DNA of 40,314 nucleotides from an uncultured Bacilli bacterium. Lineage in GTDB: Bacteria; Bacillota_I; Bacilli_A; RF39; UBA660. The stretch is taken from assembly GCA_947624845.1 (NCBI GenBank), contig CANQMB010000002.1, positions 1-40,314 of the forward strand. The letters are read 5' to 3'. The notes beneath the pieces were generated by a model. It ran no database searches and was not told the DNA's origin. It worked only from the letters and a program-made list of their open reading frames with translations. The translations under genes and the position numbers were made by a program. Positions 637 through 39,581 of the stretch are shown piece by piece (position 1 is the stretch's first letter; every line of letters begins with the position of its first letter).

Positions 637-643
637 TTCCTTT

Positions 644-6714: not shown

Positions 6715-6833
6715 TGTGGATAAAAATTTGCACGATGTGAAGAAAAATTTGTGGAAAATGTGGATAATTCATTTTATTTTATATTTTTCAATTCTTTTTT
6801 ATGTGGAAAAACTTGTGGATTCCTTGTGAATAA
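6715..6833. promoter_or_regulatory. oriC part 1: DnaA-box cluster upstream of dnaA (also the dnaA and rpmH promoter region)
   Basis: Six boxes in one orientation. TGTGGATAA at 6715-6723 and 6759-6767 is the exact complement of TTATCCACA. TGTGGAAAA occurs at 6750-6758 and 6802-6810. TGTGGATTC is at 6814-6822 and TGTGAATAA at 6825-6833. AT-rich tracts lie between them. Confidence 0.85.
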
Positions 6834-6920
6834 AAATTTTTCTTATAAAATTGTTTCTTTTTTTCACAAATTGAGATACACTAAATTTAAGTTTTAACTT
6901 TTTGGTGGGGAGATGGTAGA

Positions 6921-8297
6921 ATGAATGTAGATTCTTTATGGTCTAAATTTTTATCGACAATCAAAGAAGAACTATCCTCCCTTTCTTATAATATTTGGTT
7001 TGCAGACACAGAACTTTATAAATTAGAACAAGACCGAGCCATCATTATTGTTCCAATGCCAATTCACAAAAAACATTTACCTGAAAATTATAAAGAAATT
7101 ATAGAAAGTACTTTAAATTCAATTACAGGTTCCAATTTAGAATTAGAATTTTTATTAAAAGAAGAAATTCCAAATGAAGAAGAGGAAGAAATCAAAGAAA
7201 TTATTACGATTGAAAAAGAAACTTCAACTCCATTGAATCATTCACCAGTTCAAACGAATTTAAAAAAACAATATACTTTTGAAAACTTTATTGTTGGAAA
7301 TAGTAATAAATTTGCCCATGCAGCCGCTCTTTCTGTTGCAGAAAATCCTGGAAAAATGTATAATCCTCTCTTTATTTATGGAAATAGTGGGTTAGGGAAA
7401 ACTCATTTAATGCATGCAATTGGAAATTTTATCGTAGAAAATAGTAATAAAAAAGTCTTATATGTAACAAGTGATCAATTTATTGAAGATTTTATTGGAA
7501 TTAATAAAAAAAACAATCGAGAAAATAATTTTGATTGTGTAGACTTCTTTAAAAATAAATATCGAAATATTGATGTTTTAATTATTGACGATATTCAGTT
7601 TTTAGGACCGGCCACACAATCTCAACAAGAATTTTTCCACACTTTTAATTCCCTATATAATGATTCAAAACAAATTATTATTTCTTCAGATCGATCTCCT
7701 GATGATTTAAAACTTTTAGAAGATCGTCTGAGAACTCGATTTTGTTGGGGTCTTACCGTTAATATTTTTCCTCCAGATTTCAATCTTCGAGTAGAAATAT
7801 TGAAGAAAAAAATTATCGCTGGAAATTTTGAAAAAGAAATTCCGAATGATGTCATTGAATATATTGCTTCTAATATTGGAAATGATGTCCGACAATTAGA
7901 AGGATCTATTACTCGATTAATTGCATATTCCACAATTATGGGAGGTGCTGAAATTAATTTAGATTTAGCCATTGAAGCTTTAAAAGACTTTATTAGCAAA
8001 GGAATGTGTGAAAAAAATGATATTCATCGAATTCAGCGGATTGTATCCGAATATTTTCAAATCTCAGTAGAAGATATTCGAAGCAAAAAAAGAAGTGCCA
8101 ATATTGCTTTTCCAAGACAAATTGCTATGTATCTATGTAGAAAAACAACATCTGAATCTTTTCCTAAAATAGGAACAGAATTTGGGGGAAAAGATCATTC
8201 TACTGTAATGCATTCCGTTGAAAAAATAGAACAAGAAATTAAAATAAATAAAGATTTGGCTAATATTATAGAAAAATTAAAAAAAGATATAGAATAG
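6921..8297 (+). CDS. dnaA: chromosomal replication initiator protein DnaA
   Basis: AAA+ Walker A GNSGLGKTHL and Walker B LIIDDIQF. C-terminal DNA-binding block FGGKDHSTVMHS. Confidence 0.97.
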   Translation: MNVDSLWSKFLSTIKEELSSLSYNIWFADTELYKLEQDRAIIIVPMPIHKKHLPENYKEIIESTLNSITGSNLELEFLLKEEIPNEEEEEIKEIITIEKETSTPLNHSPVQTNLKKQYTFENFIVGNSNKFAHAAALSVAENPGKMYNPLFIYGNSGLGKTHLMHAIGNFIVENSNKKVLYVTSDQFIEDFIGINKKNNRENNFDCVDFFKNKYRNIDVLIIDDIQFLGPATQSQQEFFHTFNSLYNDSKQIIISSDRSPDDLKLLEDRLRTRFCWGLTVNIFPPDFNLRVEILKKKIIAGNFEKEIPNDVIEYIASNIGNDVRQLEGSITRLIAYSTIMGGAEINLDLAIEALKDFISKGMCEKNDIHRIQRIVSEYFQISVEDIRSKKRSANIAFPRQIAMYLCRKTTSESFPKIGTEFGGKDHSTVMHSVEKIEQEIKINKDLANIIEKLKKDIE

Positions 8298-8301
8298 GGG
8301 A

Positions 8302-8413
8302 TGTGGATAATTTTTTATAACTATTTTACTTTTCCACATAGTTTCATGTAAAATAGTCTTTATAAATCAATGGAGATAAAAGTTTTAAACTTTTTCCACA
8401 GTAATAATAACAA
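8302..8413. promoter_or_regulatory. oriC part 2: DnaA boxes and a trio-like repeat in the dnaA-dnaN spacer
   Basis: TGTGGATAA at 8302-8310. TTTTCCACA at 8330-8338 and 8392-8400, in the opposite orientation. The last box is followed by G then TAA TAA TAA CAA (8402-8413) and an AT-rich tract running into the dnaN RBS. Confidence 0.7.
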
Positions 8414-8440
8414 TATAATAAAAAAGAAAGAAGGAATATT

Positions 8441-9568
8441 ATGAAATTAACAATAAAAAAGGAATTATTATTAGATGCTTTAATTAAAGTTTCTAAAGCA
8501 ATTTCTACTAAAAATTTAATTCCTGTTTTAGCAGGGATTCGATTTGATGTTTCAAAAAAGAAATTAACTTTAACAGCATCCGATAACGATATTACAATCG
8601 AAACGACAATTGATGCTAACGATACCAAAGATTTTGTTATTGAAAAAGAAGGTTCTATTATTATTCAAGGAAAATATATATTAGATATTGTAAGAAAACT
8701 TCCTGATGAATATATTAATATAGAATTAATAGATGAATTAAAAATTATGATTTATACAGAAAATAGTGAATTTAATTTAAATGGAATCAATGAAAGTGAA
8801 TATCCTTCCATTGATTTAGAAGAAAGTAAGAAAAAAATTGTGATTTCTAATTCAGTAATGAAAGAAATTGTTTCCCAAACAGCTTTCGCTGCTTCCCATG
8901 AAGAGACAAAGCCTGTATTAACTGGTATTAATTTCAATATCGTAGGGGATACCTTAGAATGTAATTCGACAGATTCTTATCGTCTTGCAAGAAAAATAAT
9001 CAAACTAGAAGAAGCCAGTGATGATAATTATAATATTGTAATTCCTAGTCATAATTTAGAAGAATTTTGCAAAATTTTGGATGAAGATAAAGAAAATATA
9101 GAAATTCATATATTTAATAATAAAATTTTATTTAAATATAAGAATATTAAATTTCAGTCTAGATTAATTAATGGAACTTATCCAAATACATCCAATTTAA
9201 TGCCTACAGATTCCTATTTAATTGTCAGTGCAAATTTAAATGATCTTTATAGTGTCATTGATCGGGCAAGTATTTTAACAAGTGATAAGGAAAAAAATAT
9301 TGTTACTTTGGAAACAGAAGGGGACACATTAATATTAAAATCTTCCTCTGCAGAAATTGGTAGAGTAGAAGAGAAAATGAAAATTCAAAAGAATAATCAA
9401 GAAAATATCAAAATTTCTTTTAGTGCAAAATATATGATGGAAGCATTAAAATCATTTAGAACAGAAAATGTAGAGCTTCATTTTGGCGGAGAAATTAAAC
9501 CTATTGTATTAAAATCGAAAGAAGATGAATCTTTAACTCAATTAGTATTACCAATTCGCACTTATTAA
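8441..9568 (+). CDS. dnaN: DNA polymerase III beta sliding clamp
   Basis: 375 aa. Typical N-terminus MKLTIKKELLL..L..VSKAIS, internal KPVLTGINF, and C-terminal LVLPIRTY. Confidence 0.95.
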   Translation: MKLTIKKELLLDALIKVSKAISTKNLIPVLAGIRFDVSKKKLTLTASDNDITIETTIDANDTKDFVIEKEGSIIIQGKYILDIVRKLPDEYINIELIDELKIMIYTENSEFNLNGINESEYPSIDLEESKKKIVISNSVMKEIVSQTAFAASHEETKPVLTGINFNIVGDTLECNSTDSYRLARKIIKLEEASDDNYNIVIPSHNLEEFCKILDEDKENIEIHIFNNKILFKYKNIKFQSRLINGTYPNTSNLMPTDSYLIVSANLNDLYSVIDRASILTSDKEKNIVTLETEGDTLILKSSSAEIGRVEEKMKIQKNNQENIKISFSAKYMMEALKSFRTENVELHFGGEIKPIVLKSKEDESLTQLVLPIRTY

Positions 9569-9605
9569 AATATTCAAAATTAAATTTTGGATATTTTTTT
9601 TTATT
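9569..9605 (+). terminator. AT-rich hairpin plus T-run after dnaN
   Basis: AATATTCAAAAT (9569-9580) pairs with ATTTTGGATATT (9584-9595), with one G-U pair. A T-run follows. The stem is all-AT, so it is weak. Confidence 0.45.
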
Positions 9606-9693
9606 TTCCAGAAATTTCAACAAATATCGACACCAGAATTTGATATGCTAGAAAGTGAAAACGCAAATTTTGGGTTTTCGGAAAGGGGGTTTT

Positions 9694-10155
9694 ATGAAAT
9701 ACGAAATTAATGAAGGAACACTAGCAATTCTTCCCATTGATTCAGAAAAAAGTAAAGTTTTTGAAGATCAAAAAGAGTATATTATCGATGAAAATCCATA
9801 TCAAATATTGGATGAAAGTTGTAAATACTTTGGAAGCAGTTATCAAGGAAGAAAAGAAGGGGCAAAAAGTATTTTAGGAGATGGCTATAAAATACCTATA
9901 GTTGTAGAAGATGGAAGAAATATTATCTTTTTTCCAACAATTTCTCCATTTGATAAAGAATGTATTTGGTTATCTTCAAAAAATATCCAAGGAATTGAAG
10001 AAATTGATGATGTAACTTCTCGAATTATTTTTAATAATTCAAGAAAAATAGAGATTCCAATTTCTTATCGATCTTTGGAAAATCAATTATTTCGTGCAAC
10101 ACGGTTAGAATCTGTCGTACGAAATAGAAAAATTAATAAGAATATGCAAAATTAG
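9694..10155 (+). CDS. comK: ComK-family competence transcription factor homolog (153 aa)
   Basis: Blocks align with B. subtilis ComK as I recall it: YEINEGTLAILP; SCKYFGSSYQGRKEGA (Bsu SCRFFGSSYAGRKAGT); IPIVV...IIFFPTIS...CIWLS; IEIPISYRSLENQLFRA (Bsu ELPISYNSFENQVYRT). Start moved to ATG 9694, behind SD AAAGGGGG. The track start is GTG 9655. Confidence 0.82.
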   Translation: MKYEINEGTLAILPIDSEKSKVFEDQKEYIIDENPYQILDESCKYFGSSYQGRKEGAKSILGDGYKIPIVVEDGRNIIFFPTISPFDKECIWLSSKNIQGIEEIDDVTSRIIFNNSRKIEIPISYRSLENQLFRATRLESVVRNRKINKNMQN

Positions 10156-10175
10156 GTGCATAAATACCCATATTA

Positions 10176-10184
10176 TGATATAAT
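10176..10184 (+). promoter_or_regulatory. extended -10 element (TGaTATAAT) upstream of recF
   Basis: TG at 10176-10177, one spacer nt, then TATAAT at 10179-10184. No good -35 is visible. Confidence 0.4.
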
Positions 10185-10252
10185 ATTCTCGTAGGTATAG
10201 GAATACTAATACAGGGATAAGGTGATAATATGGGTCTTTTTTTACCTAAATT

Positions 10253-11362
10253 ATGATTTTGCAAAAATTAAATCTTTTAAATTTTAGAAATTATGAAAAA
10301 GCATCAATTTCTTTTGGTCCAAATTTAAATATTATCATTGGTAAAAATGCACAAGGAAAAACAAATATTTTAGAAGCCATTGAAATTCTTGCTCTAACAA
10401 AATCTCATCGTAGTGGAGTTGATCCAAATTTAATTCGAATTGGAAAAGAAAAAGCAATTTTACGGGGAAGAGTAAAAGAAAATAGAATTTTAAATGATTT
10501 AGAAATAGAAATCATTACTGGTAATAAAAAAATTCAAGTCAATCAGAATAATATAAGTAGAGTTGCCGATTATATTTCATATTTAAATATTATTATGTTT
10601 ACACCAGATGACTTAGAATTAATTAAAAATTCTCCAAGTATTCGAAGAAATTTCTTAAATATCGAATTAAGTCAATTATCAAAAACTTATCTAAATACCT
10701 ATAATGAGTATAATAAAATTTTAAAAACTCGAAATGAATACTTAAAACTTCTTTTTACAAATAGTATTGCTGATAAAAAATATTTTGATATTTTAACAGA
10801 AAAATTAATTGAAAAAGCAATTATTATTTATAAAAAGAGAAAAGAATTTATTGATTGTCTAAATCAAAAAATTGATCAAATTTTTTTTGATATTTCTAAA
10901 CAAAAGAGTCTAAAAATTTTATATGAACCAAATTTAGAATTTGAAACGATGGAAGAAGATCATATCCGAGAAGTGATGAGAGAATCGTTTCAAAAAAATT
11001 ATGAAAAAGAATTAAATAATAAAATGACTTTATATGGTCCTCATCGGGATGATTTTTCCTTTTATTTAAACGATATCAATTTAAAATATTTTGGTTCTCA
11101 AGGTCAACAACGTCTTGCTATCATCTGTATGAAGTTAGCAGAAATTCCAATTTTTGAAGAAGTATGTAAGACAAAACCACTTCTTCTATTAGATGATATT
11201 TTTAGTGAATTAGATTTAGAAAAAAGAAAAAAATTATTAAAGTATATTAATAAAGATTTACAAAGTGTCATTACAACTACAGATTTAAAAAATATTCAAA
11301 AAAAATTTTTAGAAAATGCAAATATTTATTATGTTGAAGAAGGTAAAATTACAAGAAAGTAG
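10253..11362 (+). CDS. recF: DNA replication and repair protein RecF
   Basis: N-terminal LNLLNFRNY and Walker [17 protein letters not shown] signature SQGQQR and Walker [13 protein letters not shown]. Confidence 0.95.
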
Positions 11363-11369
11363 GGATAAT

Positions 11370-13286
11370 GTGGAAGAAAAAAAATATGATTCATCATCAA
11401 TTCAAGTATTAGAGGGATTAGAAGCTGTAAGAAAACGTCCAGGAATGTATATTGGAACAACGAGTTCTAGAGGACTCCACCATTTAGTATGGGAAATTGT
11501 GGATAATGCAATTGATGAGGCTCTAGCAGGATTTTGTACTCATATTGAAGTAATTATTGGAAAAGAAAATACAATTACTGTAAAAGATAATGGTCGTGGA
11601 ATTCCTGTAGATATTCATCCAAAAACAAAAAAGAGTACAGTTGAAACTGTCTATACTGTTTTGCATGCTGGTGGAAAATTTGGAGGCGGCGGATATAAAG
11701 TATCTGGAGGACTTCATGGTGTTGGAGCCAGTGTAGTGAATGCTCTTAGTAGTTGGTTAGAAGTTCGTGTTTATCGAGATGGAAAAGTATATTTTCAGCG
11801 ATATAGTAATGGGGGACATGCGGAAGATGAACTTAAAATTATAGAAGAATGTGCAAAAGATCGGACAGGAACAACCGTAACATTTAAACCAGATCCTAAT
11901 ATTTTTACAGAAACGACGACTTTTGAGTACGAAATTTTAAAAATCAGACTTCGAGAACTTGCTTTTTTAAATAAAGGATTACGTATTTCTTTATATGATG
12001 AAAGAGAAGTTGATAAAAGTGATTCTTTCTGTTATGAAGGTGGTTTAAAAGAATATGTTACAATGTTAAATCAATCAAAAAATCCAATTCATGAAACAAT
12101 CATTGATATTTCAGGAGTAGATAAAGATATTTCATTAGAAGTTGCACTTCAATATAATGAAACTTATAATTCTAGTATTTATTCTTTTGTTAATAATATT
12201 ACAACCCCTGAAGGAGGAACTCATGAAGATGGTGTCAGAAGGGCATTAACTAGAATTTTGAACAAATATGCAGTTTCCAGTGGAATGCTTAAAAATAATG
12301 ATGATTCTTTAACAGGAGATGATGTTCGAGAAGGTTTAACGATGATTATTTCCATCAAACATCCAAATCCACAGTTTGAAGGTCAAACAAAAACAAAATT
12401 AGGAAATGCAGAAGTTCGTGGAATTTCTGATAAAATATTTTCTACTGCCTTTGAAAGATTCTTAATGGAGCATCCAGATGAGGCCAGAGCGATTGTCGAT
12501 AAAGGAATGACTGCATCTCGTGCGAGAGTTGCTGCGAAGAAAGCTCGTGAACTTACAAGAAGAAAAGGGGATTTGGATATTACAAACTTCTATGGAAAAC
12601 TTTCTGATTGTAAAAGCAAAGATGCTTCTGTCAGTGAAATATTCTTAGTCGAGGGAGATTCTGCAGGTGGATCTGCAATTAAAGGTAGAAATAGTATGAC
12701 TCAAGCAATTTTACCTCTTCGTGGAAAAATTTTAAATGTGGAAAAAGCTAGATTGGATAGAGCTTTATCCAATGAGGAAATTAGAACAATTATTACTGCT
12801 TTTGGAACAGGAATTGGTGAAGAATTTGATTTAAGTAAATTGAGATATCATAAAATCATTATCATGACCGATGCTGATGTGGATGGATCTCATATTCGAG
12901 TATTATTATTAACTTTATTTTATCGCTTTTTTAGACCAATTGTGGAAGCGGGTCATGTTTTTGCAGCTCAACCACCACTTTTTGTAATCAAACATGGAAA
13001 AACAATTAAATATGTATTAAATGAAACAGAAAGAGATGAATATTTAGCATCTCTTCCTGAAAATACAAAATATGAAATTGCTCGGATGAAAGGTTTAGGA
13101 GAAATGGATGCCGAGGAATTAAATGAAACTACAATGGATATTGAAAAAAGAGTTTTAAGACAAATTACTGTAGAAGATGCAATGCTTGCAGATGAAACCT
13201 TCGCTCAATTAATGGGGGAAGAAGTAGAACCACGACGCAATTTTATTGAAGAAAATGCAGTTTATGTAGAAAATTTAGATGTTTAG
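11370..13286 (+). CDS. gyrB: DNA gyrase subunit B
   Basis: [19 protein letters not shown], the Toprim block [14 protein letters not shown], and [12 protein letters not shown]. Start set at GTG 11370, giving 9 aa before IQVLEGL as in other GyrB. The track ORF start at 11316 overlaps recF. Confidence 0.93.
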
Positions 13287-13298
13287 GAGGTGCGGCAA

Positions 13299-15767
13299 AT
13301 GGATAGATTAGAAAAAAATAATATTGTAAATGAAGTAAGAAACTCCTTTCTAGAATATTCGATGAGCGTTATTGTCGCAAGAGCTTTACCAGATTTAAGA
13401 GATGGATTAAAACCAGTTCATCGACGTATTTTATATTCAATGTATGAATCTGGATATACGCCAGATAAACCCCATAAAAAAAGTGCTAAAACTGTAGGGG
13501 AAGTCATGGGAAATTATCATCCTCATGGAGATTCAAGTATTTATGAAGCGATGGTTCGAATGGCTCAAGATTTTTCTTATCGTTATATGTTAATTGATGG
13601 GCATGGAAACTTTGGTAATATTGAAGGTTATGGTGCAGCCGCTATGCGTTATACGGAAGCACGACTTTCTAAAATTTCTTTAGAACTTCTTAGAAATATT
13701 AATAAAAATACAGTAAATTTTATTCCAAACTTTGATGAAACAACGAAAGAACCAGAAGTTTTGCCTTCTCGTTTTCCAAATATTTTAGTCAATGGTACTA
13801 TGGGAATTGCTGTTGGTATGGCAACCAACATTCCTCCACATAATTTAGGAGAAGTGATTGATGGATGTATTGCCTATATTGATAATCCAGATATTGATGT
13901 CGATGGATTAATGCAATATATTAAAGGACCAGATTTTCCAACAGGAGCGACGATTCTTGGAAATAGTGGAATTAAAAAGGCTTACGAGACTGGTAGAGGT
14001 AGTATTACAATTCGAAGTAAAGCTCGTATTGAAGAAGACAAAGGCAAACATTATATCATTATTGATGAAGTTCCTTATGGTGTAAATACGCTTGATTTAA
14101 AAAATAAAGTTGCTGATTTAGTTCATAATAAAGTAATTGATGGAATCGCGGATTATCATACTGATTTAAAAGATGGTATTAAAATTACAATTACATTAAA
14201 GAAAGATGCCAATCCTCAAGTTGTATTGAATAATTTATATAAACATACTGCCTTTCAAACGAATTTTGGAATTATTTTCTTAATGCTTGATCAAGGAGTT
14301 CCAAAAACATTGGGATTAAAAGAAATTATTTCCAAATATATTGATTATCAGAAAGAAATTATTATTCGAAGAACTCGATTTGATTTAGAAAAAGATGAAG
14401 CTCGTGCTCATATATTAGAAGGCTTGAAAATAGCATTAGATCATATTGATGAAATTATTAATTTAATTCGTTCTTCAGATAGTGATGAAGAAGCAATACA
14501 AGGCCTTATGGGAAAATATCATTTATCTGAGGCTCAGTCACAAGCAATATTAGATATGCGTCTTAAGAGATTAACAGGCTTGGAAAGAACTAAAATAGAA
14601 AACGAACTTGCTGATTTATTAAAGGAAATTGAAGAATTAAAATCAATTTTAGCAAGTGAGGAAAAAGTATTACAAATCATTAAAGAAGAAATGTTAGAAA
14701 TCAAAAATAAATATAGCGATGAACGTCGTACTAACATTGATATGACTGCAATTGAATATATAGAGGATGAGTCTTTGATTCCAGTAGAAGATATTATTGT
14801 AACACTTACAAATAATGGATATGTCAAGAGATTAAAATCAGATACTTATCGTTCTCAAAATCGCGGTGGTGTGGGAATTAAAGGAATGACAACCAATGAA
14901 GAAGACTTTGTTAAACATTTAATTAACATGAAAACTCATGACTATATTTTATTCTTCTCTAACAAAGGCCGTGTTTATCGATTAAAAGGATATGAAATAC
15001 CAGAATTTAGCAGACAATCAAAAGGACTGCCAATTATTAATCTATTATCATTAGAAAAAGACGAAAATATTAGTTCGATAATTAAAATTGATTCAGACCA
15101 AAGTGAAGAAAATGATGAATATTTATTCTTTACAACTAAAAATGGATTAGTAAAACGAACTGCTATGAGTGAATTTGATAGTATTCGCAAAAGTGGAAAA
15201 ATTGCTATTATATTAAAAGATAATGATGAATTAATCAATGTTTCGAAGACAACAGGTGAAAATGAAATTGTTTTAGGTGCTCATAATGGTCGAATGGTTC
15301 ATTTTAATGAAAATGAAGTTCGAATAATGGGACGAAGTACTTCTGGTGTTAAAGGAATGGAATTAGATGGAAGTTATATTGTTGGTGCAGAAGTTATTAA
15401 TCCAAATCAATTAATATTGATTGTTACTGAAAACGGTTATGGAAAACAGACAGCTATTGAAGAATATCGTTTAACTCATCGTGGTAGTAAAGGAGTAAAA
15501 GCATTAAATATAACTGATAAAAATGGTGAAATGGTATCTTTAAATACTGTGGATACATCAAAGGAGCAAGATATTATTATTGTCAGCGATAGTGGAATTG
15601 TAATGAGAATGCCTTTGGAACAAGTATCAACATTAAAAAGAGCCACTCAAGGTGTACGTTTAATTCATTTAAAAGATAATCAAAAAGTTGCTACTGTAAC
15701 CATTGTTGAAAAAGAAAATGAAGAAATGGAAGAAAATACTTCAGATGAACAAATAGAAGCAGAATAA
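13299..15767 (+). CDS. gyrA: DNA gyrase subunit A
   Basis: [19 protein letters not shown] and [17 protein letters not shown] (QRDR). Active-site [13 protein letters not shown] 13299 lies 8 nt after GGAGG. Confidence 0.95.
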
Positions 15768-15783
15768 TGCTTCTATTTGTTTT
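15751..15783 (+). terminator. hairpin overlapping the gyrA stop codon
   Basis: AAATAGAAGC (15751-15760) pairs with GCTTCTATTT (15769-15778). The TAA stop is in the loop and a T-rich tail follows. Confidence 0.5.
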
Positions 15784-15831
15784 ATGTTTCACGTGAAACA
15801 TTGCCAAATTATTTCCCGGGAAATAATTTTA
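15784..15831. repeat. composite palindromic repeat, left copy (PalA + PalB)
   Basis: ATGTTTCACGTGAAACAT (18-bp palindrome), then TGCC, then AAATTATTTCCCGGGAAATAATTT (24-bp palindrome). The 48 bp are the exact reverse complement of 16434-16481. Confidence 0.95.
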
Positions 15832-15850
15832 AATTAAATTTATTAATAAT

Positions 15851-15879
15851 TTGCAATATTTAAATGTTTGTAATATAAT
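15851..15879 (+). promoter_or_regulatory. sigma-A type promoter for the SRP RNA (and probably tadA)
   Basis: -35 TTGCAA (15851-15856), 17-nt spacer, consensus -10 TATAAT (15874-15879). Confidence 0.7.
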
Positions 15880-15885
15880 AAATAC

Positions 15886-15965
15886 GATGCAATGAATAGG
15901 TTGGAATCAGGTCAGAATCGGAAGATAGCAGCCTTAACAATTTTTATTCATGTGCATCATTTATT
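15886..15965 (+). ncRNA. ffs: small (4.5S-like) signal recognition particle RNA
   Basis: Domain IV signature CAGGUCAGAAUCGGAAGAUAGCAGCC, compared with E. coli AGGUCAGGUCCGGAAGGAAGCAGCC. The GGAA tetraloop is closed by AUC/GAU. A long closing helix pairs GAUGCA.UGAAUA with UAUUCA..UGCAUC, followed by a U-run. The ends are approximate. Confidence 0.8.
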
Positions 15966-15980
15966 TTGGAGTGAAAATTT

Positions 15981-16427
15981 ATGTATAATCAAAAATTTAT
16001 GAAACTTGCTATTGAAGAAGCAAAAACAGCCTTAAATGAAGAAGAAGTACCTATTGGTGCTGTTATTGTAAAGAATAATCAAGTAATATCTACAGGATAT
16101 AATCAAAAAAATGGTTCTAATTTTGTTACAAAACATGCTGAAATTATAGCAATTGAAAAAGCAAATCAAATTTTAAATAATTGGCGCTTGATCGATTGTG
16201 ATATTTATATAACTTTAGAACCTTGTCCAATGTGTATGAGTGCAATTCAACAAGCAAGAATAAAAAATGTTTTTTATGGAATTTCTAATCGGGATTTAAA
16301 CAATGAAAAAATTATTAAAGAAATTGCTAAAAAAAATCAAACAAATCCAGAAGTTTTATTACATCACGGATATATGATTTCAGAAATTGAAAATCTTATG
16401 AATAAATTTTTTTTAAAACATCGCTAA
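15981..16427 (+). CDS. tadA: tRNA-specific adenosine-34 deaminase TadA
   Basis: CDA zinc motifs HAEIIAI and PCPMCMSAI. 148 aa. GGAG lies 9 nt upstream. Confidence 0.93.
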   Translation: MYNQKFMKLAIEEAKTALNEEEVPIGAVIVKNNQVISTGYNQKNGSNFVTKHAEIIAIEKANQILNNWRLIDCDIYITLEPCPMCMSAIQQARIKNVFYGISNRDLNNEKIIKEIAKKNQTNPEVLLHHGYMISEIENLMNKFFLKHR

Positions 16428-27802: not shown

Positions 27803-28011
27803 CTATATTAATTAGTGATGACGAAGAGTTTAATAGACCAATCTAGCAAAGAGAATTCTTGAGGGTGAAAATAGAATCTAGAAGTTTATTAAATATGGCT
27901 TTTGAACTATTAAGTCGATAGGTAGGCTTAATCGTAAGTAGGCGTTAACTATTTGAGTGTATAATAGAATTATTATAAAATAAGGTGGTACCGCGAAATG
28001 TTCGTCCTTAT
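27803..28011 (+). promoter_or_regulatory. T-box riboswitch leader, Met specifier
   Basis: GA/K-turn UGAUGA...GAAGAG and stem I distal AGAGA...GGUGAAA. Candidate specifier AUG at 27895-27897. T-box sequence AAGGUGGUACCGCG (27982-27995). Antiterminator helix AUAAGG (27980-27985) pairs with CCUUAU (28006-28011). Confidence 0.8.
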
Positions 28012-28047
28012 ATTATAATAATTTTTTATTTTAAGGAGAGTGAATTT

Positions 28048-31342: not shown

Positions 31343-32020
31343 ATGGAAGAACAACAGAAAAAAGCGAGAGAATTTGTTTTTTCTTTATTGTCGATTGCTT
31401 TTCTTATCGTCGTTGTTCTCGGTGCTACTTATGCTGCTTTTTCTTATACAGGAGTGGGTTCTGCTGATAATACCATTTCTACTAGCAAACTTACTTTTGA
31501 ATATATAGAAGATCGAAATGGAATTAATTTGGTCAATGCTTATCCAATTTCAGATGAAGTAGGGAAAAATTTAATTCAAACCAATGAAGACGATGGTATT
31601 TTAAGTGGTTATTTTGATTTTACAATTTCTAGTAATATAGAATATGCTTTTACGAATGAAGACGAAGAGGTTCCTGTACAAGATCCTGTTCATTATGAAA
31701 TTTATGCAAAAGATATAACCGATGAAGTCATAGCGAGTGAATCAGAGCAATCATTAGAAAAATTGGATGGACAATATGTAAAAGTATATTTGACTTCTGG
31801 GGATTCTGAAGAGTCTCTTATGGGAGATGAGGATACGGTTCCTACGTGGAGCAGTTTGGAAGATTCTACGGAAGAAAACTCTAAAACAATATATAAAGGT
31901 TCTTTTGAAGAAAATGGAAGTCAAAATTTCCGTTTGAGAATGTGGGTTGCTCAAAATTATACAGATGGAAGTGCTCATCGGACATTCGCAGTAAAAGTTG
32001 GTGTCAAAACAATTAAATAA
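31343..32020 (+). CDS. TasA/camelysin-like secreted protein, paralog 1 (225 aa), SipW-type signal peptide
   Basis: TM helix ending GATYAAFSYTG, then NTISTSKLTFEY. Shares blocks with 32085-32732 and 33685-34314 (FDFTIS, YEIYA, VKVYL, YKGSF, FRLRMWV, FAVKVGV). GGAGG lies 8 nt before ATG 31343. Confidence 0.65.
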   Translation: MEEQQKKAREFVFSLLSIAFLIVVVLGATYAAFSYTGVGSADNTISTSKLTFEYIEDRNGINLVNAYPISDEVGKNLIQTNEDDGILSGYFDFTISSNIEYAFTNEDEEVPVQDPVHYEIYAKDITDEVIASESEQSLEKLDGQYVKVYLTSGDSEESLMGDEDTVPTWSSLEDSTEENSKTIYKGSFEENGSQNFRLRMWVAQNYTDGSAHRTFAVKVGVKTIK

Positions 32021-32033
32021 TTAAAAAAAATGT

Positions 32034-32061
32034 TTGCAAAAATTAATTATTATGGTATAGT
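32034..32061 (+). promoter_or_regulatory. strong sigma-A promoter of paralog 2
   Basis: -35 TTGCAA (32034-32039), 16-nt spacer, extended -10 TGgTATAGT (32053-32061). Followed by SD AAGGAGG. Confidence 0.6.
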
Positions 32062-32084
32062 TAGAGTAAGGAGGATAAGATAAA

Positions 32085-32732
32085 ATGGAAAACCAAAATA
32101 ATAATCAGATGAAAGACAATTCATCAAAACAAATATTATTGTCTGTTTTGGGAGTAGCAATCCTAGTTGTAGCTGTTGTCGGTGTTTCGTTTGCAGCATT
32201 TACTTATACTGGAGAAGGTACTGAAGAAAATACAATTAGTACAGGTACTCTTAGTATGACTTATACTGAAACGACAAACGGAATTTCTATTTCAAATGCT
32301 CAACCAACAGAAGATGAAGCTGGAAAGAAATTAAGTTCAGATAATGAAAAATTTGATTTTACAGTTTCTGCTGAAATCAATGGTGAAGCTGAGATTCCTT
32401 ATGAAATAGCAGCGATTAAACAAGTAATTCCTGAACCAATGGTTGCACTTCAAAATAAAGATGTTAAATTATATTTGGAAAAATCTGAAGATGGTATAGA
32501 TTATACCTCAGCAAAAGAACCAACAGCATTTACTCCATCTGGATCTACTACTGAAGCTGGTACTCCAGTTGGTGCCATGGTTTTATATAAAGGTACATTC
32601 CAACAATCAGATGAAGAATATTTCCGTTTAAGAATGTGGGTTGACCACGAAGCTACTTTAGATCCAACCAATTTACAAGCATTTACAGTTAAAGTAAATG
32701 TCTATGGTAAAGCACAAGCTAAAGCAGGTTAA
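32085..32732 (+). CDS. TasA/camelysin-like secreted protein, paralog 2 (215 aa), probable major subunit
   Basis: Helix ending GVSFAAFTYTGEGTEENTISTGTLSMTY, which parallels TasA GGGTWAAFND and CalY TFAFFSD..NTFAAGTLDL. C-terminal YFRLRMWV...FTVKVNVYG. Its codon choice looks biased toward GGT/ACT/GCT/GAA codons; I did not quantify this. Confidence 0.7.
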   Translation: MENQNNNQMKDNSSKQILLSVLGVAILVVAVVGVSFAAFTYTGEGTEENTISTGTLSMTYTETTNGISISNAQPTEDEAGKKLSSDNEKFDFTVSAEINGEAEIPYEIAAIKQVIPEPMVALQNKDVKLYLEKSEDGIDYTSAKEPTAFTPSGSTTEAGTPVGAMVLYKGTFQQSDEEYFRLRMWVDHEATLDPTNLQAFTVKVNVYGKAQAKAG

Positions 32733-32761
32733 AAAAAGGTATCAATGGATACTTTTTTTTT
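32731..32761 (+). terminator. strong (bidirectional-looking) intrinsic terminator
   Basis: An A-run, then stem GTATC (32739-32743), loop AATG, stem GATAC (32748-32752), then 9 T. Confidence 0.8.
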
Positions 32762-32790
32762 GTCTATTTTTTGTCATCCGTGTTTTTTTC

Positions 32791-32819
32791 TTTCCATTTC
32801 GTCTGTTTTATGGTATGAT
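32791..32819 (+). promoter_or_regulatory. promoter of the sipW operon
   Basis: -35 TTTCCA (32791-32796), 17-nt spacer, extended -10 TGgTATGAT (32811-32819). Confidence 0.5.
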
Positions 32820-32875
32820 AAAATCAGAATATAAGATAGAATTTTGGGGAAGGCAAGAGGGAAGCTGGTGAAAAA

Positions 32876-33670
32876 ATGAGTGAGCATACGGTAAAGACAG
32901 ATCTAGATGAAAAAGATCTGCATCCATCAATTTTTACTATCATTAAAAAGATCTATAATTTTGTTGCCAAAGTAATTTTATATTCTATTATTATGGCGAT
33001 GCTCTTCATGGGTGTTTTATTTGTTACTTATTCGATTGATTATATGCAAAATATTTCCAAGGGAAATTACAAACCGTTATATGGTGCCTATATTATTGTC
33101 AGTCCCAGTATGGTCCCTGCCATTCATGTTCAAGATGCAGTCATTGTTAAAAATGTTGCTATGAATCGTCTTCGTAAAGGCGATATTATCACTTTTACTT
33201 CTACGGATTCTAGATACTCAGGATTAATTGTTACACACCGAATTATTGATATTGAAAAAAATGAAGATGGAAAATATTTATTTCGGACAAAAGGGGATAG
33301 TAATAATAGTCCCGATGATGCCCTAGTAACGGAAGATAATATTCATGGAAGGGTGTTTGTAAAAATTCCCAAAATAGGTTATTTACAAAGCTTTTTATCT
33401 CATTCTTATGGTTGGATTATTTGTGTCGTTATTCCATGTCTTGCTTTAATTGCCTATGAAATTTTAAGAATTATTCAAGCGACAAGAGATACCGTCGTAA
33501 AAAAAGTGAGTAAAAAAAATAATCAACAATATAAGACTAAGAAACAAAGAAAAAAACATCAAGTAGAAGTGATTGCCAATGCCAAAGATAAAAAAACAAC
33601 AAAAGAAAAAGAAGAAATTGAAATTATATCTTTAGAAGATGAAAATAATAAATCAAAACATAAAAATTAG
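32876..33670 (+). CDS. sipW: SipW-type (ER/archaeal-type, Ser-His) signal peptidase I with extended termini (264 aa)
   Basis: Catalytic boxes IVSPSMVPAI (Ser), GLIVTHRII (His) and KGDSNNSPDD. TM helices at the N- and C-terminal sides of the catalytic domain. A roughly 70-aa Lys-rich C-terminal tail. Confidence 0.85.
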   Translation: MSEHTVKTDLDEKDLHPSIFTIIKKIYNFVAKVILYSIIMAMLFMGVLFVTYSIDYMQNISKGNYKPLYGAYIIVSPSMVPAIHVQDAVIVKNVAMNRLRKGDIITFTSTDSRYSGLIVTHRIIDIEKNEDGKYLFRTKGDSNNSPDDALVTEDNIHGRVFVKIPKIGYLQSFLSHSYGWIICVVIPCLALIAYEILRIIQATRDTVVKKVSKKNNQQYKTKKQRKKHQVEVIANAKDKKTTKEKEEIEIISLEDENNKSKHKN

Positions 33671-33684
33671 AAAGGAGTATTGAT

Positions 33685-34314
33685 ATGGAAAATAAAGTAG
33701 ATACAGAAAATAAAATTGAGGCAGAAAATACAGTTGATACGGAAAATACAGATAATACAGAAAATAAAGAGAAAAGCCGAAGTAAAGTATTTTTAGAAAT
33801 TTTTATTTGTGGAATCATCCTTTTTCTTTTTTCTCTCGGTACTTCCTTTTTTTGGTATAAGCTTTTTCAAAAAGATAAGGTAGCATTTACAAACTTTGTT
33901 ATTGCTTTAAAAGATGGTGGAAAGGGTGTGGATGTTACTTCTGCAGTTCCTCAAGAGGATAAAATAGGACAAACGACTCCTGGGTACTCATTTGAAATTA
34001 GTAACAATGGAGAAATTCCAGGAAATTATGAAGTGATATTAGAAGATAGTATTGAAAAAGATGAAGATGGATCATCCTTAGAAAATTTATTAACGAGAGA
34101 GCAATTAAGATATCAATTAAGTTTAAATGATCAAGTTATTAATAAAGGATATTTATCTGAATTAGAAGATAGTATTTTAGATATTCGTTCTATCAATAAA
34201 AAGAAAACGAATGTGTATAATTTAAAAATTTGGGTAGCAAAGAATGCCGTCGATTGGGAAAACAAAATCTATCATTATAGAGTCGTTGTAAAACCAATGG
34301 AAAGGGGTAAATAA
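33685..34314 (+). CDS. divergent TasA-like paralog 3 (209 aa), probably membrane-anchored
   Basis: Acidic (T/D)EN-repeat N-tail and a TM helix. GTSFFWY replaces the G.S[FY]AAF cleavage box. The C-terminal domain keeps the family blocks (YSFEISN, YEVIL, YNLKIWVAKN, YRVVVKP). SD AAAGGAG. Confidence 0.6.
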   Translation: MENKVDTENKIEAENTVDTENTDNTENKEKSRSKVFLEIFICGIILFLFSLGTSFFWYKLFQKDKVAFTNFVIALKDGGKGVDVTSAVPQEDKIGQTTPGYSFEISNNGEIPGNYEVILEDSIEKDEDGSSLENLLTREQLRYQLSLNDQVINKGYLSELEDSILDIRSINKKKTNVYNLKIWVAKNAVDWENKIYHYRVVVKPMERGK

Positions 34315-34315
34315 G

Positions 34316-35023
34316 ATGAGAAAATTATTTGGTGAATATAGTCAGATTATCGGTTATACTTGTACAGGCTTAGTTTTTGGGCTTTCTTTCTTTCTTCTGT
34401 TTTTGAATTTTTATCATTATAAAGAAGTATCGATTCAAACAGATAAGACAAAATATGTTGATGATACTTATCAAAAAATAATGACAAATAATGAAAAAAT
34501 AAAAAATATTGTTCAAAATTTTGATGTAAATCGATATACAGGAAGTGAAAACGATTATGGTCTGTTATCGATTCAATCTAGATTAGAGATGTGTACTAAA
34601 GATTTTGAAGATCAAAAAATAGCTTCCTATTTCCAAAAAGAAAAATTATCTGTTTCGGATATCTATGATTTTGGATCTTTATATAATTCTAAAATAGTAA
34701 ATAGTTGTATTGTTAAGGAACTATATGATTTCTTTGCGAGTACGCCTACGAATGCTGATTCAAGATTTTCTTCTCCTAAAATATTAAATGTAACACCCAT
34801 TATGAAGTTAGAAGCGGATTCTTTAATTAGACGTATCGATTATGTTTCTTCAAATCTTGAAAATAACAGTAGTTATTACTTTAATAACAAACGAGCTCGT
34901 AATCATGTATTTAATGTTGCTAAAAGTAGTTATTATGCGATTGTGACTTCTTATGGAGATGCTTCTGATTTTCTTTTAGAAATATCTAATTGGTTTGCTC
35001 GTTATATTGGAGGTGCTGCATGA
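34316..35023 (+). CDS. hypothetical single-pass membrane protein (235 aa)
   Basis: N-terminal TM LVFGLSFFLLFLNFY, then a polar domain of about 190 aa. The start is 1 nt after the upstream stop. SD AGGGG. Confidence 0.55.
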   Translation: MRKLFGEYSQIIGYTCTGLVFGLSFFLLFLNFYHYKEVSIQTDKTKYVDDTYQKIMTNNEKIKNIVQNFDVNRYTGSENDYGLLSIQSRLEMCTKDFEDQKIASYFQKEKLSVSDIYDFGSLYNSKIVNSCIVKELYDFFASTPTNADSRFSSPKILNVTPIMKLEADSLIRRIDYVSSNLENNSSYYFNNKRARNHVFNVAKSSYYAIVTSYGDASDFLLEISNWFARYIGGAA

Positions 35024-35493
35024 AAAAAATATTTAATGGTTTATTTTATTTCTTAAAATTTTTATTGTTTGTTGCCTCTTTTTCTCTCACTTTATTAATT
35101 ATTGTTCAGATGTATAATCGATTAGGCAAAGATGTATTTGATTCTATTCCTGTTTTTGTTCCTTATTTATGTCTATTAATTTTATTTATTATTAATATTC
35201 TTTTAAGACAAAAATCAGTAACTAAATGTGTATTCTATAATATTACTTGTTGTCTAGTTTTTGGAACGATTCTTGTCGTAGGACTTCGAGCTATGTTCGA
35301 CAGTAATATGATATTAAGGGCACAATTAGGTAGAAAGATTAATTTCAACTTTTTTGATTACTTTATACCTTTTATGAAAGTAATGCTATATGGTTTATCA
35401 ATTAGTAATTTCTTTTTGATGTTTACTGGAGAGAAAAAAGAAAAAAAACTAGCGAAATTAATAAAAGAAGAGGATATTGAACAAGTAATTTAA
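35020..35493 (+). CDS. hypothetical polytopic membrane protein (157 aa, about 4 TM)
   Basis: ATG 35020 lies 4 nt behind GGAGG and forms an ATGA overlap with the upstream stop. Four hydrophobic segments and a charged C-tail. Confidence 0.55.
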   Translation: MKKIFNGLFYFLKFLLFVASFSLTLLIIVQMYNRLGKDVFDSIPVFVPYLCLLILFIINILLRQKSVTKCVFYNITCCLVFGTILVVGLRAMFDSNMILRAQLGRKINFNFFDYFIPFMKVMLYGLSISNFFLMFTGEKKEKKLAKLIKEEDIEQVI

Positions 35494-35509
35494 CTTGTTC
35501 CTTTTTTTT
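35479..35509 (+). terminator. intrinsic terminator closing the accessory cluster
   Basis: GAACAAGT (35479-35486) pairs with ACTTGTTC (35493-35500), followed by 8 T. Confidence 0.8.
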
Positions 35510-35514
35510 GTTTG

Positions 35515-36334: not shown

Positions 36335-36405
36335 GTGTCTAATTTCTTAATTCTTGGCATAAACTTAGGTGGAGATGATGCCAATGATGTATGGAGGAAG
36401 TCCAT

Positions 36406-36624
36406 ATGACAATTGAAAAAGTGAAAGAAATGGTCAGCAGAAATACGAATCAACCATTAAAATTTAAATTTAATGGGAGTAGAAATCAAGTAGAAGAATT
36501 TTCTGGAAAAATCGTAGAAGCTTACCCTGCTGTTTTTATTGTCGAGGTGTTGGATGCAACAAATCGTCGTAAATCATTTACTTATAGCGATATTTTAACT
36601 TCCAGTTTAGAAATTATCGAATAA
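36406..36624 (+). CDS. veg: Veg protein (72 aa)
   Basis: Parallels B. subtilis Veg (L.LKANGGRRK..ER.G.L.ETYPSVFVI....SYSYADILT) with LKFKFNGSRNQVEEFSGKIVEAYPAVFIVEV...SFTYSDILT. GGAGG lies 8 nt before ATG 36406. Confidence 0.85.
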   Translation: MTIEKVKEMVSRNTNQPLKFKFNGSRNQVEEFSGKIVEAYPAVFIVEVLDATNRRKSFTYSDILTSSLEIIE

Positions 36625-37701: not shown

Positions 37702-37739
37702 TTTTTTTATCGACTTTGAATGAGAAAAGTACTATTTGA

Positions 37740-37978
37740 ATTTATTTTAGCGAGTTGGAATTTGGTGAAAGTCCAATAATAAACAAATAGGAAAGAACAC
37801 TCAGGAGTTGCTTACCGAACGATTTCTAGTAGGCTAAGCCGGACGGCAGTTCGTTATAAAATGCTAGATTTGATAGAATCGAAAAAGTGATCATAGAAAA
37901 TAAAAGTTTATGATAAATTGGGTGGTACCGCGGAATGCTAGTTTTCGTCCCTTATTGAGGATGAGACTAGCGTTTTTA
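37740..37978 (+). promoter_or_regulatory. T-box riboswitch leader, Asn specifier, with canonical terminator
   Basis: Stem I AGCGAG...GGUGAAAG. Specifier AAC followed by A at 37796-37799. T-box GGUGGUACCGCG at 37921-37932. Terminator GCUAGU (37937-37942) pairs with ACUAGC (37966-37971), followed by UUUUU. Confidence 0.8.
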
Positions 37979-37997
37979 TTTGAAGGGAGAGATTATT

Positions 37998-39581
37998 ATG
38001 TGTGGCTTTATGGTCATGACAAAAAAAGAAATTAGCAAAGAAGAGTTTGCAAAGCATTTTGCAAAAATGAAATACCGTGGTCCAGACGAGACGAGAATTC
38101 TTGAAGGAGATTATTTTTTTGGATTTCATCGACTTGCCATTATGGGACTTACTGAGGAAGGGATGCAACCATTTGAGAGAGATCAAAATATTTTAGTATG
38201 TAATGGTGAAATTTATGGATTCCGTAAAGAAAAAGCGAAATTAGAAAAAGAGGGTTATCAATTTAAAAGTGATAGTGATTGTGAAATTTTACTTCCTATG
38301 TATGAAAAATATAAGGAAAAGATGTTTCAAAAGTTAGATAGTGAATTTGCCCTCGTTTTATATGATGCCAAAAAAAAGAGTTTTATTGCTGCAAGAGATC
38401 CTATTGGGATTCGTCCGATGTTTTATGGATATTCTAAAAAGAGTGGTTCTATTCTTTTTGCTAGTGAAGCAAAAGTATTGATTGATCTATGTTCCTCTGT
38501 TTATCCATTTCCACCTGGGCATTATTATCAAGACGGAAAGTTTATTTGTTATCATGATGCTAGAAAATCTAAATCAAAGAGAGACGATTCTCTAGATATT
38601 ATTTGTGATAAAATTAACGAAAAGTTAACGAATGCGGTTATTAAGAGGTTAGATTCTGATGCCCCTGTAGGATTTTTACTTTCTGGTGGACTAGATTCTT
38701 CCTTAGTATGCAGTATTGCAGCTTCTTATTTAGAAAAACCAATTCAAACTTTTGCGATTGGGATGGATAAAGATGCAATTGATTTAAAATATGCTCGAAT
38801 GGTAGCGGATCATATTCATAGCAATCATACTGAAGTGATTATGGCGAGCAAGGAAGTCATCGAGGCATTGAAAGAAGTTATATATCATTTGGAAACTTGG
38901 GATATTACGACCATTCGTGCTTCTATTGGTATGTATCTACTTTGCAAATGGATTTCTAAAAATACGGATATTCGAGTTTTATTGACTGGAGAAGTAAGTG
39001 ATGAATTATTTGGATATAAATATACGGATTTCGCTCCTAATGCTCTCTCTTTTCAAAAAGAGAGTGAAAAAAGAATTCATGAACTCTACATGTATGATGT
39101 TCTAAGAGCAGATCGTTGTATTTCTGGATGTTCTATTGAAGCTCGTGTTCCTTTTGCAGATTTAGAGTTTGTTGATTATGTTATGGGAATTGATCCTGCC
39201 AAAAAAATGAATACTTATGGGCAAGGAAAATATTTATTACGAAGAGCTTTCAGTAAAAAAGATTATTTACCAAAGACAATTTTATATCGTGAAAAAGCTG
39301 CTTTTTCAGATGCCGTAGGACATTCTATGGTCGATTATTTGAAAGAGTATGCCGAGAAAAAATATAGTGACGAGCAATTTCAAGAGAAATGTAAAAAATA
39401 TTCAAAACATACACCATTTACGAAAGAATCTTTATTGTATCGTGAAATTTTTGAGGAGTTTTTTCCTGGGCAGAGTGAATTGATTGCAGATTTTTGGATG
39501 CCAAATAAAAATTGGAAAGGATGCCAGGTAGATGATCCAAGCGCAAGAGTCTTATCAAACTATGGTGACAGTGGAAAATAA
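37998..39581 (+). CDS. asnB: asparagine synthetase (glutamine-hydrolysing)
   Basis: Ntn nucleophile MCG at ATG 37998 (SD GAAGGGAGAG) and PP-loop LSGGLDSS. 527 aa. The track start TTG 37980 would bury the catalytic Cys. Confidence 0.93.
   Translation: MCGFMVMTKKEISKEEFAKHFAKMKYRGPDETRILEGDYFFGFHRLAIMGLTEEGMQPFERDQNILVCNGEIYGFRKEKAKLEKEGYQFKSDSDCEILLPMYEKYKEKMFQKLDSEFALVLYDAKKKSFIAARDPIGIRPMFYGYSKKSGSILFASEAKVLIDLCSSVYPFPPGHYYQDGKFICYHDARKSKSKRDDSLDIICDKINEKLTNAVIKRLDSDAPVGFLLSGGLDSSLVCSIAASYLEKPIQTFAIGMDKDAIDLKYARMVADHIHSNHTEVIMASKEVIEALKEVIYHLETWDITTIRASIGMYLLCKWISKNTDIRVLLTGEVSDELFGYKYTDFAPNALSFQKESEKRIHELYMYDVLRADRCISGCSIEARVPFADLEFVDYVMGIDPAKKMNTYGQGKYLLRRAFSKKDYLPKTILYREKAAFSDAVGHSMVDYLKEYAEKKYSDEQFQEKCKKYSKHTPFTKESLLYREIFEEFFPGQSELIADFWMPNKNWKGCQVDDPSARVLSNYGDSGK

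Follow-up and report, generated by a model that had tools for sequence, protein, structure and literature searches.

What do six co-directional genes encode that stand, in a lineage of uncultured Bacilli, in front of the rRNA methylation gene ksgA, and do their products build an extracellular fibre of the kind known from TasA? The genes lie at positions 31343-35493 of a 40,314-nucleotide stretch of DNA (hereafter the window; contig CANQMB010000002.1, positions 1 to 40,314, GenBank assembly GCA_947624845.1, lineage Bacilli_A; RF39; UBA660) and are here called, in order, A, B, SipW (a SipW-like signal peptidase), C, U1 and U2. An initial annotation, made from the sequence alone, had described them as a SipW-dependent, TasA-like fibre or matrix cluster. 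The list of open reading frames (ORFs) bears out six genes on one strand, with the correction that the peptidase is number three of the six and not the fourth, as had been stated. On the evidence presented here, we consider it very likely that A and B are SipW-processed, exported jelly-roll proteins, and we lean, with much less assurance, towards a reading in which they form strand-exchange fibres with C as the base and U1 and U2 as accessory factors.

Signal peptides of A and B and the SipW-like peptidase

Gene A (31343-32020, plus strand, 225 aa) opens the cluster with a strong ribosome-binding site, GAAAGGAGG, and is followed by gene B (32085-32732, plus strand, 215 aa). The two proteins are 37% identical in pairwise comparison (E 2e-37), and hydropathy analysis identified a single N-terminal hydrophobic helix in each of A, B and C, spanning residues 7-39 in A and 12-37 in B. 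The N-terminus of A reads GATYAAFSYTG...NTISTSKL, with a predicted cleavage TYA/AF (the slash marking the cut), and that of B reads GVSFAAFTYTG...NTISTGTL, with a predicted cleavage VSFA/AF, exactly the motifs that had been claimed for two of the three paralogs. The conserved N-terminal strand region of B is NTISTGTLSMTYTE. Both mature proteins are acidic (pI 4.2 for A and 4.4 for B, with 16-19% Asp+Glu) and contain no cysteine.

The predicted cleavage site is strongly constrained across the family. Statistics were taken from the 135 of 222 A/B copies in related loci that match the search pattern, which itself fixed Ala at −1 and Phe at +2; in these copies Ser occupies −3 in 96%, an aromatic residue (Phe or Tyr) −2 in 99% and Ala +1 in 88%. 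The other 87 copies are mostly start-truncated ORF calls or carry variant sites (SMATF, SYAAI, SFATI). Independently of the pattern search, F39 is invariant in a 69-sequence alignment of the A/B family; in B numbering, the family alignment also has an invariant Asn49, Glu62 at 99% and Lys81/Lys112 at 88-91%. According to a study on TasA, that protein is cleaved at T-W-A/A-F, and Phe at P2' makes it a poor substrate of LepB and a substrate of SipW (PMC10269814). The [ST]-[FY]-A/A-F pattern of A and B, together with a SipW gene adjacent to such copies in 54 loci, bears out the TasA-like, SipW-class signal-peptide pattern that had been proposed for them. In related loci the 3D gene is followed first by an A-type ortholog, and we propose that gene A encodes a secreted jelly-roll subunit precursor and gene B the precursor of the main subunit type.

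The peptidase gene (32876-33670, plus strand) encodes 264 aa. Its product scores 99.7 bits against TIGR02228, the model for archaeal/ER-type signal peptidase I (cutoff 51.85), and 22.1 bits against the bacterial, LepB-type model TIGR02227 (cutoff 47). Against NF046067, which describes Bacillus SipW, it reaches 101.9 bits, under the equivalog cutoff of 190. The motifs SPSM (with the Ser), THRI (with the His) and TKGDxN..D are kept at 95% or more in 53 peptidase orthologs, and the protein has two transmembrane segments by hydropathy (residues 26-57 and 173-203) and a Lys-rich C-terminal tail. The Ser/His peptidase of archaeal/ER type that had been recognized here is thus confirmed by a score above the model cutoff, by its motifs and by its two helices. 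Judged by these model scores, it is the same kind of enzyme as Bacillus SipW and not its ortholog.

Gene C, the membrane proteins U1 and U2, and the spread of the family

Directly 3' of the peptidase gene lies gene C (33685-34314, plus strand, 209 aa), which is single-copy and found in this position in about 48 loci. In pairwise comparison C is 21% identical to both A and B (E 2e-4 and 3e-3, respectively). A profile of 40 C orthologs aligned with the A/B profile by hhalign at 97.3% probability (E 1.9e-11, 166 columns), and the match was kept at 94.9% when the transmembrane region was left out; C is therefore a true and old paralog, which upholds the earlier view of A, B and C as a family of three. 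The transmembrane helix of C spans residues 31-58 (hydropathy). At the position equivalent to the A/B cleavage site C has TSFF-WY and its orthologs T-S-x-L-W-Y, the residue before the Trp (−1) being mostly Leu (28 of 42 orthologs) and only in 9 of 42 Ala, and the conserved N-x-I-x-T-G-T strand motif is missing. With Leu mostly at −1, C would usually stay uncut and retain its helix, and for an uncut C we propose a role as membrane-proximal base or anchor, or as a minor subunit. The C profile gave nothing significant against the PDB. Matches to the archaeal family DUF1616 (PF07760) recurred below the cutoff, once with C (E 4.9e-4) and once with a paralog in another locus (L028:7215-7796, E 1.8e-4); they take in the transmembrane helix and the N-terminal half of the beta domain and may reflect a remote link to archaeal membrane-anchored proteins.

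The last two genes encode predicted membrane proteins. U1 (34316-35023, plus strand, 235 aa) is bitopic, with an N-terminal transmembrane helix at about residues 10-33 and an ectodomain that AlphaFold2 (AF2) models as an all-helical bundle (predicted local distance difference test, pLDDT, 81.1); its orthologs share an invariant cysteine pair, C93 and C131. Searching the PDB with this model in Foldseek found no relative below E 0.08. U2 (35020-35493, plus strand, 157 aa) is polytopic, with three to four transmembrane helices by hydropathy, and conserves R34, L35, P48, N59, R90, D94 and a YGL motif among 40 orthologs. For C, U1 and U2, Pfam and NCBIfam gave no match of the TapA, AbpB or DUF5305/TafG kind, and the absence of a recognizable TapA, already remarked upon, extends in these scans to all six proteins. 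When the scans covered the six proteins together with 69, 43 and 40 family members, only the peptidase and a weak N-terminal TasA match were consistent.

The junctions set the last four genes apart as a tightly packed unit. Fourteen nucleotides separate SipW from C, the stop codon of C lies 1 nt before the start of U1, and U1 and U2 overlap by ATGA, in agreement with the translational coupling suggested earlier for the two downstream membrane-protein genes. At the 3' side of the unit, a terminator scan found an intrinsic-terminator-like hairpin (35479..35510, plus strand; GAACAAGT...ACTTGTTC) followed by the T-rich run CTTTTTTTTG; a TGgTATAGT −10 element, assigned to ksgA, is located 3' of this hairpin. 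The spacers further upstream are longer, with 64 nt between A and B and 143 nt between B and SipW, and both contain extended −10 promoter-like sites as consensus matches only. The site in the A-B spacer (TTTGCA-17-TGgTATAGT, 32033..32061, plus strand) may serve as a separate promoter for gene B; the count of promoter-like sites in the region is no higher in the consensus scan than in shuffled sequence. A 57-aa ORF in the B-SipW spacer (32698-32871) overlaps the 3' end of B, looks spurious and was discarded.

The same arrangement was recovered widely in related genomes. A pattern scan covering one genome per species returned 237 stretches that encode relatives, and 77 loci were kept, all of them from metagenome-assembled genomes (MAGs) of uncultured gut Bacilli in mouse, rabbit, chicken, ruminant and human metagenomes. 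Their record labels include Candidatus Onthousia, 'Clostridium sp. CAG:451' and 'uncultured Tenericutes', and some Muribaculaceae labels look wrong. By tblastn and ORF classification, the common order is metG-tatD-(3D)-[1-7 A/B]-SipW-C-U1-U2-ksgA-veg-spoVG. SipW is present in 54 loci, and in about 46 of these 54 the array of one to seven A/B genes, SipW, C, U1, U2 and ksgA is complete, so that the six families do co-occur in other genomes, in every case in one syntenic slot. The slot between tatD/3D and ksgA is occupied likewise in about 50 species-level MAGs, and around the most divergent U1 homolog (31% identity) the gene arrangement is the same. The cluster had been described as an accessory system inserted into a housekeeping string; instead, it belongs to the lineage-wide syntenic core genome. 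A recent horizontal insertion was considered and rejected, given that the GC content is like that of the flanks, that no mobile-element genes are present and that the same slot is filled in all related genomes.

Two MAGs from Hadza gut samples (loci L055 and L057) have a different content at this place: at about 6770-9600, three divergent A/B-like genes and SipW are present with ksgA directly next to them, C, U1 and U2 are not in the slot, and two of the A/B-like genes are without the canonical S-[FY]-A/A-F site. Such loci could be degenerate versions of the cluster or simplified ones.

Beyond the slot, A and B belong to a large family that is covered by no Pfam or NCBIfam model and carries no annotation on the members examined. 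A word-index search found 1,290 homologs of B, and an exhaustive profile search of representative clusters (50% identity) yielded 5,572 with E<=1e-3, of which 2,535 reach E<=1e-10. Among 143 new top representatives, 60 are long proteins of 280-1,743 aa with the module at their extreme N-terminus, where they retain the G-[IV]-[ST]-[YF]-A/A-F site and the N-x-I-x-T-G motif, and their C-terminal parts consist of Big_2 domains, Listeria-Bacteroides repeats (Flg_new) or an ALK/LTK-type Gly-rich domain. This position at the N-terminus of long surface proteins points to the module as a general export, assembly or display device of the lineage. In one locus (L007:13542-14933), a 464-aa family member is located between veg and spoVG and joins the signal and jelly-roll module to an ALK/LTK-type glycine-rich domain (PF12810, E 2.8e-35); weak matches occur likewise in L018 and L024, and the window itself has no family gene between veg and spoVG. 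In a rabbit-gut MAG (Lapin-012 bin84), members of the family are scattered, outside the SipW cluster, over at least 13 further contigs (loci L010-L016, L022, L028, L029, L031, L033, L043, L060 and L069), which suggests a massive paralog expansion or an assembly fragmented by repeats.

Relation to TasA and the case for fibres

The AF2 model of B has a mean pLDDT of 82.8, with a core above 90, and shows the transmembrane helix followed by a beta-sandwich at about residues 67-210. The low-confidence part consists of the linker and the first strands (residues 35-60); the poor placement of the N-terminal strand 40-60 in a monomer model is what would be expected if its native partner were another subunit. 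When the model was compared with the PDB in Foldseek, the TasA fibre structure 8aur_A ranked fifth (E 1.7e-3, probability 0.99) and had, at 0.36, the highest query TM-score among the top 50 matches; the best match was the CBM32 domain 4lks (E 3.5e-4). Conservation is also distributed as in TasA and CalY. For A/B and TasA/CalY, respectively, it is 0.82 and 0.86 in the signal peptide, 0.75 and 0.73 in the first ~25-40 mature residues (the N-terminal strand region) and 0.46-0.63 and 0.38-0.61 in the core, and the ranking of signal peptide above mature N-terminus above core is common to both groups. A and B may function like subunits of the TasA superfamily and be very remote relatives of them.

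From these observations we infer a route of cleavage by the neighbouring peptidase, donor-strand polymerization and distinct roles for C, U1 and U2. A and B would be synthesized with their unusually conserved Sec signal peptide, and the adjacent archaeal-type peptidase would cleave them at [ST]-[FY]-A/A-F, which would free acidic, Cys-free jelly-roll subunits with the new N-terminus A-F, followed by the strand N-x-I-x-T-G-T-[IL]-x-M-x-Y-x-E. This N-terminal segment would then act as the donor strand that enters the next subunit, giving an extracellular fibre. C would stay in the membrane as base or anchor, or act as a minor or initiator subunit, and could be the functional counterpart of TapA or of the membrane anchors encoded in archaeal loci. 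U1 and U2, coupled to C, would assist at the membrane in processing, anchoring or assembly, and the large relatives with Big_2 or Listeria-Bacteroides repeats could be alternative or tip subunits that follow the same route. A wider version, which we regard as possible yet rather doubtful, would make the locus the core of a lineage-specific, sortase-independent system for sorting and assembling surface proteins, in which the SipW-type peptidase with C, U1 and U2 recognizes the N-terminal module and polymerizes or displays thousands of proteins, from 200-aa subunits to 1,700-aa adhesins.

Several results weigh against a TasA-like fibre. Neither A, B and C (at E<=1) nor any of 69 relatives matched PF12389 (Peptidase_M73). 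Against the TasA model NF046066, B scored 16.9 bits (cutoff 450) over residues 14-87 only, and similarly weak matches were found in 10 of 69 A/B family members. Searches of the PDB by sequence and profile (with B and the A/B profile) gave nothing significant, and TasA was absent from the profile search even at E<=10. When the A/B profile was compared by hhalign with a TasA/CalY profile built from 44 sequences (the TasA sequence being identical to PDB 8aur over residues 28-261), the probability was 15% over 61 columns. Those columns cover the signal peptide and the first strands, up to about 30 residues past the signal peptide, and align A-A-F in both groups, N-t-I-s-T-G-T-I with n-F-A-A-G-T-L-D-L, and N-G-I-s-I-t-N-A-x-P with F-d-L-s-N-l-K-P. 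Comparison of the mature parts only gave a score of 16.2, and reversed controls gave 15.2 and 12.0. Because the score without the signal peptide is at background, we do not file A and B as TasA/camelysin members; as that family is defined by sequence models, they are outside it, and the assignment of the three proteins to it, as originally made, fails with PF12389, with NF046066 and with the mature-domain profiles.

The structural comparison is not specific. The jelly-roll fold that had been predicted is present in the model of B, and Foldseek does not single out TasA: unrelated jelly-rolls (CBM32, the Eph ligand-binding domain and birnavirus VP2) score alongside it, and the TM-scores for B are low throughout (<=0.36). 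To these points must be added that the co-occurrence of the six families is partly inherited synteny, because all loci share one slot of one lineage, and that the arrangement in the two Hadza MAGs implies that C, U1 and U2 are not universally required. Nor does homology support the accessory role proposed for the last two proteins: U1 had no Pfam, NCBIfam or PDB sequence or profile match, and U2 had no consistent Pfam match and no NCBIfam relative. Finally, if the genomes are without a LepB-type enzyme, the SipW-like peptidase may be a plain housekeeping signal peptidase.

The last point leads to an alternative that we consider improbable, namely that the enzyme is the general signal peptidase I of a reduced-genome lineage and that its neighbours are just abundant secreted and membrane proteins with no dedicated relation to it. 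It would account for the location of the cluster inside an origin-proximal core string in every genome examined and for a score under the Bacillus SipW equivalog cutoff, and no LepB-type enzyme is encoded in the 40-kb window, which is uninformative for the whole genome. It would not account for an A/B signal peptide whose conservation greatly exceeds that of a normal Sec signal, with a near-invariant site and Phe at +2, nor for a peptidase gene that is always flanked by the A/B array on one side and by C on the other and lies close to C-U1-U2 in translational terms, an arrangement known for the dedicated peptidases of TasA-superfamily loci. Far less probable still is a type IV pilin-like protein that keeps its hydrophobic N-terminal helix and builds the filament core from it. 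The high conservation of that helix is compatible with it, and there are weak matches to the archaeal Pilin_N model in 3 of 69 members (best E 0.007), to PilA4 in 2 of 69, and to the archaeal pilin chains 8fjs (E 7.7) and 6nav (E 1.2), but all of these are insignificant and restricted to the transmembrane helix. We rejected this reading, as Pfam and NCBIfam scans of the cluster show neither a prepilin peptidase nor an assembly ATPase nor a platform protein, and the proteins have no class III signal of the G/F...E5 type; a canonical −3/−1 signal peptidase I site follows the helix instead, and a Ser/His signal peptidase I is encoded alongside.

A more serious competitor, although in our view an unlikely one, is the display of monomers at the cell surface. 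Here the module would be a lineage-specific sorting or attachment domain, either cleaved by SipW or kept as a signal anchor, whose jelly-roll docks on a complex of C, U1 and U2 or on the wall, and the tandem copies would be antigenically varied or would bind glycans. That the top structural match of B is a carbohydrate-binding module and that receptor ligand-binding jelly-rolls rank high would fit such a function, as would the variation in A/B copy number from one to seven, the many scattered copies in one MAG and the fact that the transmembrane or h-region is the most conserved part of A and B. The multidomain architecture of 60 of the 143 top representatives, with the module N-terminal, points the same way, but fusion to adhesin repeats is also typical of the tip subunits of strand-exchange fibres. 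Display of monomers would leave aside that the conservation profile and the A/AF site match those of the fibre-forming TasA and CalY, that the mature N-terminal strand is highly conserved and yet poorly placed in the monomer model, and that a single-copy, divergent C after the peptidase fits the logic of major and minor subunits.

The fibre reading can also be set against the systems already described. Loci that unite jelly-roll subunits of major and minor type with their own TIGR02228 peptidase, a membrane anchor, tip proteins and small membrane proteins have been described for TasA, BsaA, the archaeal AbpA/AbpB and AbpX and the haloarchaeal Tafi pili, and the BsaA/TasA family is reported to be structurally conserved and highly divergent in sequence. 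As in tapA-sipW-tasA of Bacillus subtilis and sipW-tasA/calY of Bacillus cereus, a two-helix, presumably dedicated peptidase of archaeal/ER type adjoins its putative substrates here. The signal peptide is the most conserved part, the cleavage pattern is small-aromatic-Ala/Ala-Phe, a collinear N-T-[IF]-[SA]-[TA]-G-T-[LI] follows the site, the mature domain is modelled as a jelly-roll and there is more than one paralogous subunit. In contrast to TasA and CalY, the mature domain of A and B is without detectable homology to theirs and mature position 4 is Tyr or Phe, where TasA has Asp. The locus further differs from TasA systems in having no TapA, one to seven tandem copies of the major type, a fixed core location near the replication origin (oriC), a conserved paralog C with a non-canonical site, the membrane proteins U1 and U2, and a module that recurs at the N-terminus of very large proteins with adhesin repeats.

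The sipW-bsaA-bsaB-bsaC locus of Clostridium perfringens is alike in combining a SipW gene with at least two remote TasA-like paralogs in an operon (PMC7395162, PMC11580942). In that system one paralog polymerizes, and the oligomers are membrane-anchored and not sortase-linked (PMC7395162, PMC11580942). Compared by description, our locus differs in lacking a von Willebrand A protein (BsaC) and in having the peptidase in the middle of the cluster and not first. In the A/B family, Asn49, which lies in the presumed donor strand, Glu62 and Lys81/Lys112 bring to mind the Asn-Glu-Lys triad through which BsaA molecules are joined by isopeptide bonds, with a different spacing.

With the loci for archaeal bundling pili (Tafi TafA/E-TafD-TafG-TafF, AbpX and AbpA/AbpB) the cluster shares its locus logic, major and minor subunits, a TIGR02228 peptidase, a predicted anchor, subunits of the tip or adhesin type, and small membrane proteins without an assigned role. 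The subunits are acidic in both, with an aromatic residue at mature position 2; AbpX-type subunits are acidic and Cys-free, and in AbpX-type fibres the aromatic residue at this position is the donor-strand clamp. Unlike those loci, the present one has a bacterial host and a peptidase with 2 transmembrane helices (10 in AbpX-type enzymes), it has no DUF5305 protein and no Tat signal, and U1 and U2 are without detectable counterparts there. The cluster fits the TasA/BsaA/AbpX kind; new within that kind are its subunit family, its gene order, the tandem amplification and the conserved pair of membrane proteins, for which no counterparts were detected.

Surroundings of the cluster and meaning of the family

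Pfam confirmed the conserved flanking string that had been recognized on both sides, with metG, TatD and a 3D-domain protein upstream and RrnaAD (ksgA), Veg, SpoVG, YabP and YabQ downstream. Some 900 nt 3' of the cluster is the veg gene (36391-36624), which Pfam annotates as 'Biofilm formation stimulator VEG'. Veg of B. subtilis stimulates transcription of tapA-sipW-tasA; its proximity here is probably coincidental, because conserved ksgA-veg synteny explains the location. A role in the spore coat, for which the identity of TasA with CotN and the nearby yabP, yabQ and spoVG could be cited, was set aside, since these genes form an ordinary conserved Firmicute string and hence provide no evidence.

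Two T-box leaders were found in the window. One (RF00230, 127 bits; 37707-37955, plus strand) lies 5' of an ORF for an AsnB-type asparagine synthase (37980-39581; Pfam Asn_synthase and GATase_7) and points to a tRNA-sensing control of asparagine synthesis. The other (105 bits; 27809-28012, plus strand) lies upstream of metG, for which the listed GTG start at 27985 is over-extended and the ATG at 28048 is the likely start. The chromosomal replication origin region falls within positions 1-16000, with a change of sign in the GC skew near position 7,000; the six-gene cluster is therefore on the leading strand, at a distance of about 24 kb from the origin. A divergent block on the minus strand precedes the dnaA-like ORFs there, and ORFs on the plus strand fit dnaA (6921-8297), dnaN, recF, gyrB and gyrA, with identities taken from ORF size and order only. 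A signal recognition particle (SRP) RNA is encoded at 15876-15973.

Strand-exchange fibres of the TasA type are emerging as a means, across domains of life, of building biofilm matrix and bundling pili. To our knowledge, few bacterial examples have been described, from Bacillus and C. perfringens, and none of them has a known membrane factor dedicated to assembly. The general principle of a SipW-type peptidase and jelly-roll fibres is thus already known, and what is new here is a large unannotated family, found as sampled in uncultured gut Bacilli only, together with three conserved partners, C, U1 and U2, that are candidates for anchoring and assembling the fibre. If the locus were indeed the core of a sorting and assembly system, U1 and U2 would be the first proteins known to be dedicated to assembling or anchoring a TasA-like fibre in bacteria. 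If the fibre reading is correct, the locus would explain the main surface structure of abundant uncultured commensals. Seed alignments of these proteins can provide new family models, through which thousands of proteins now labelled 'hypothetical' could be annotated.

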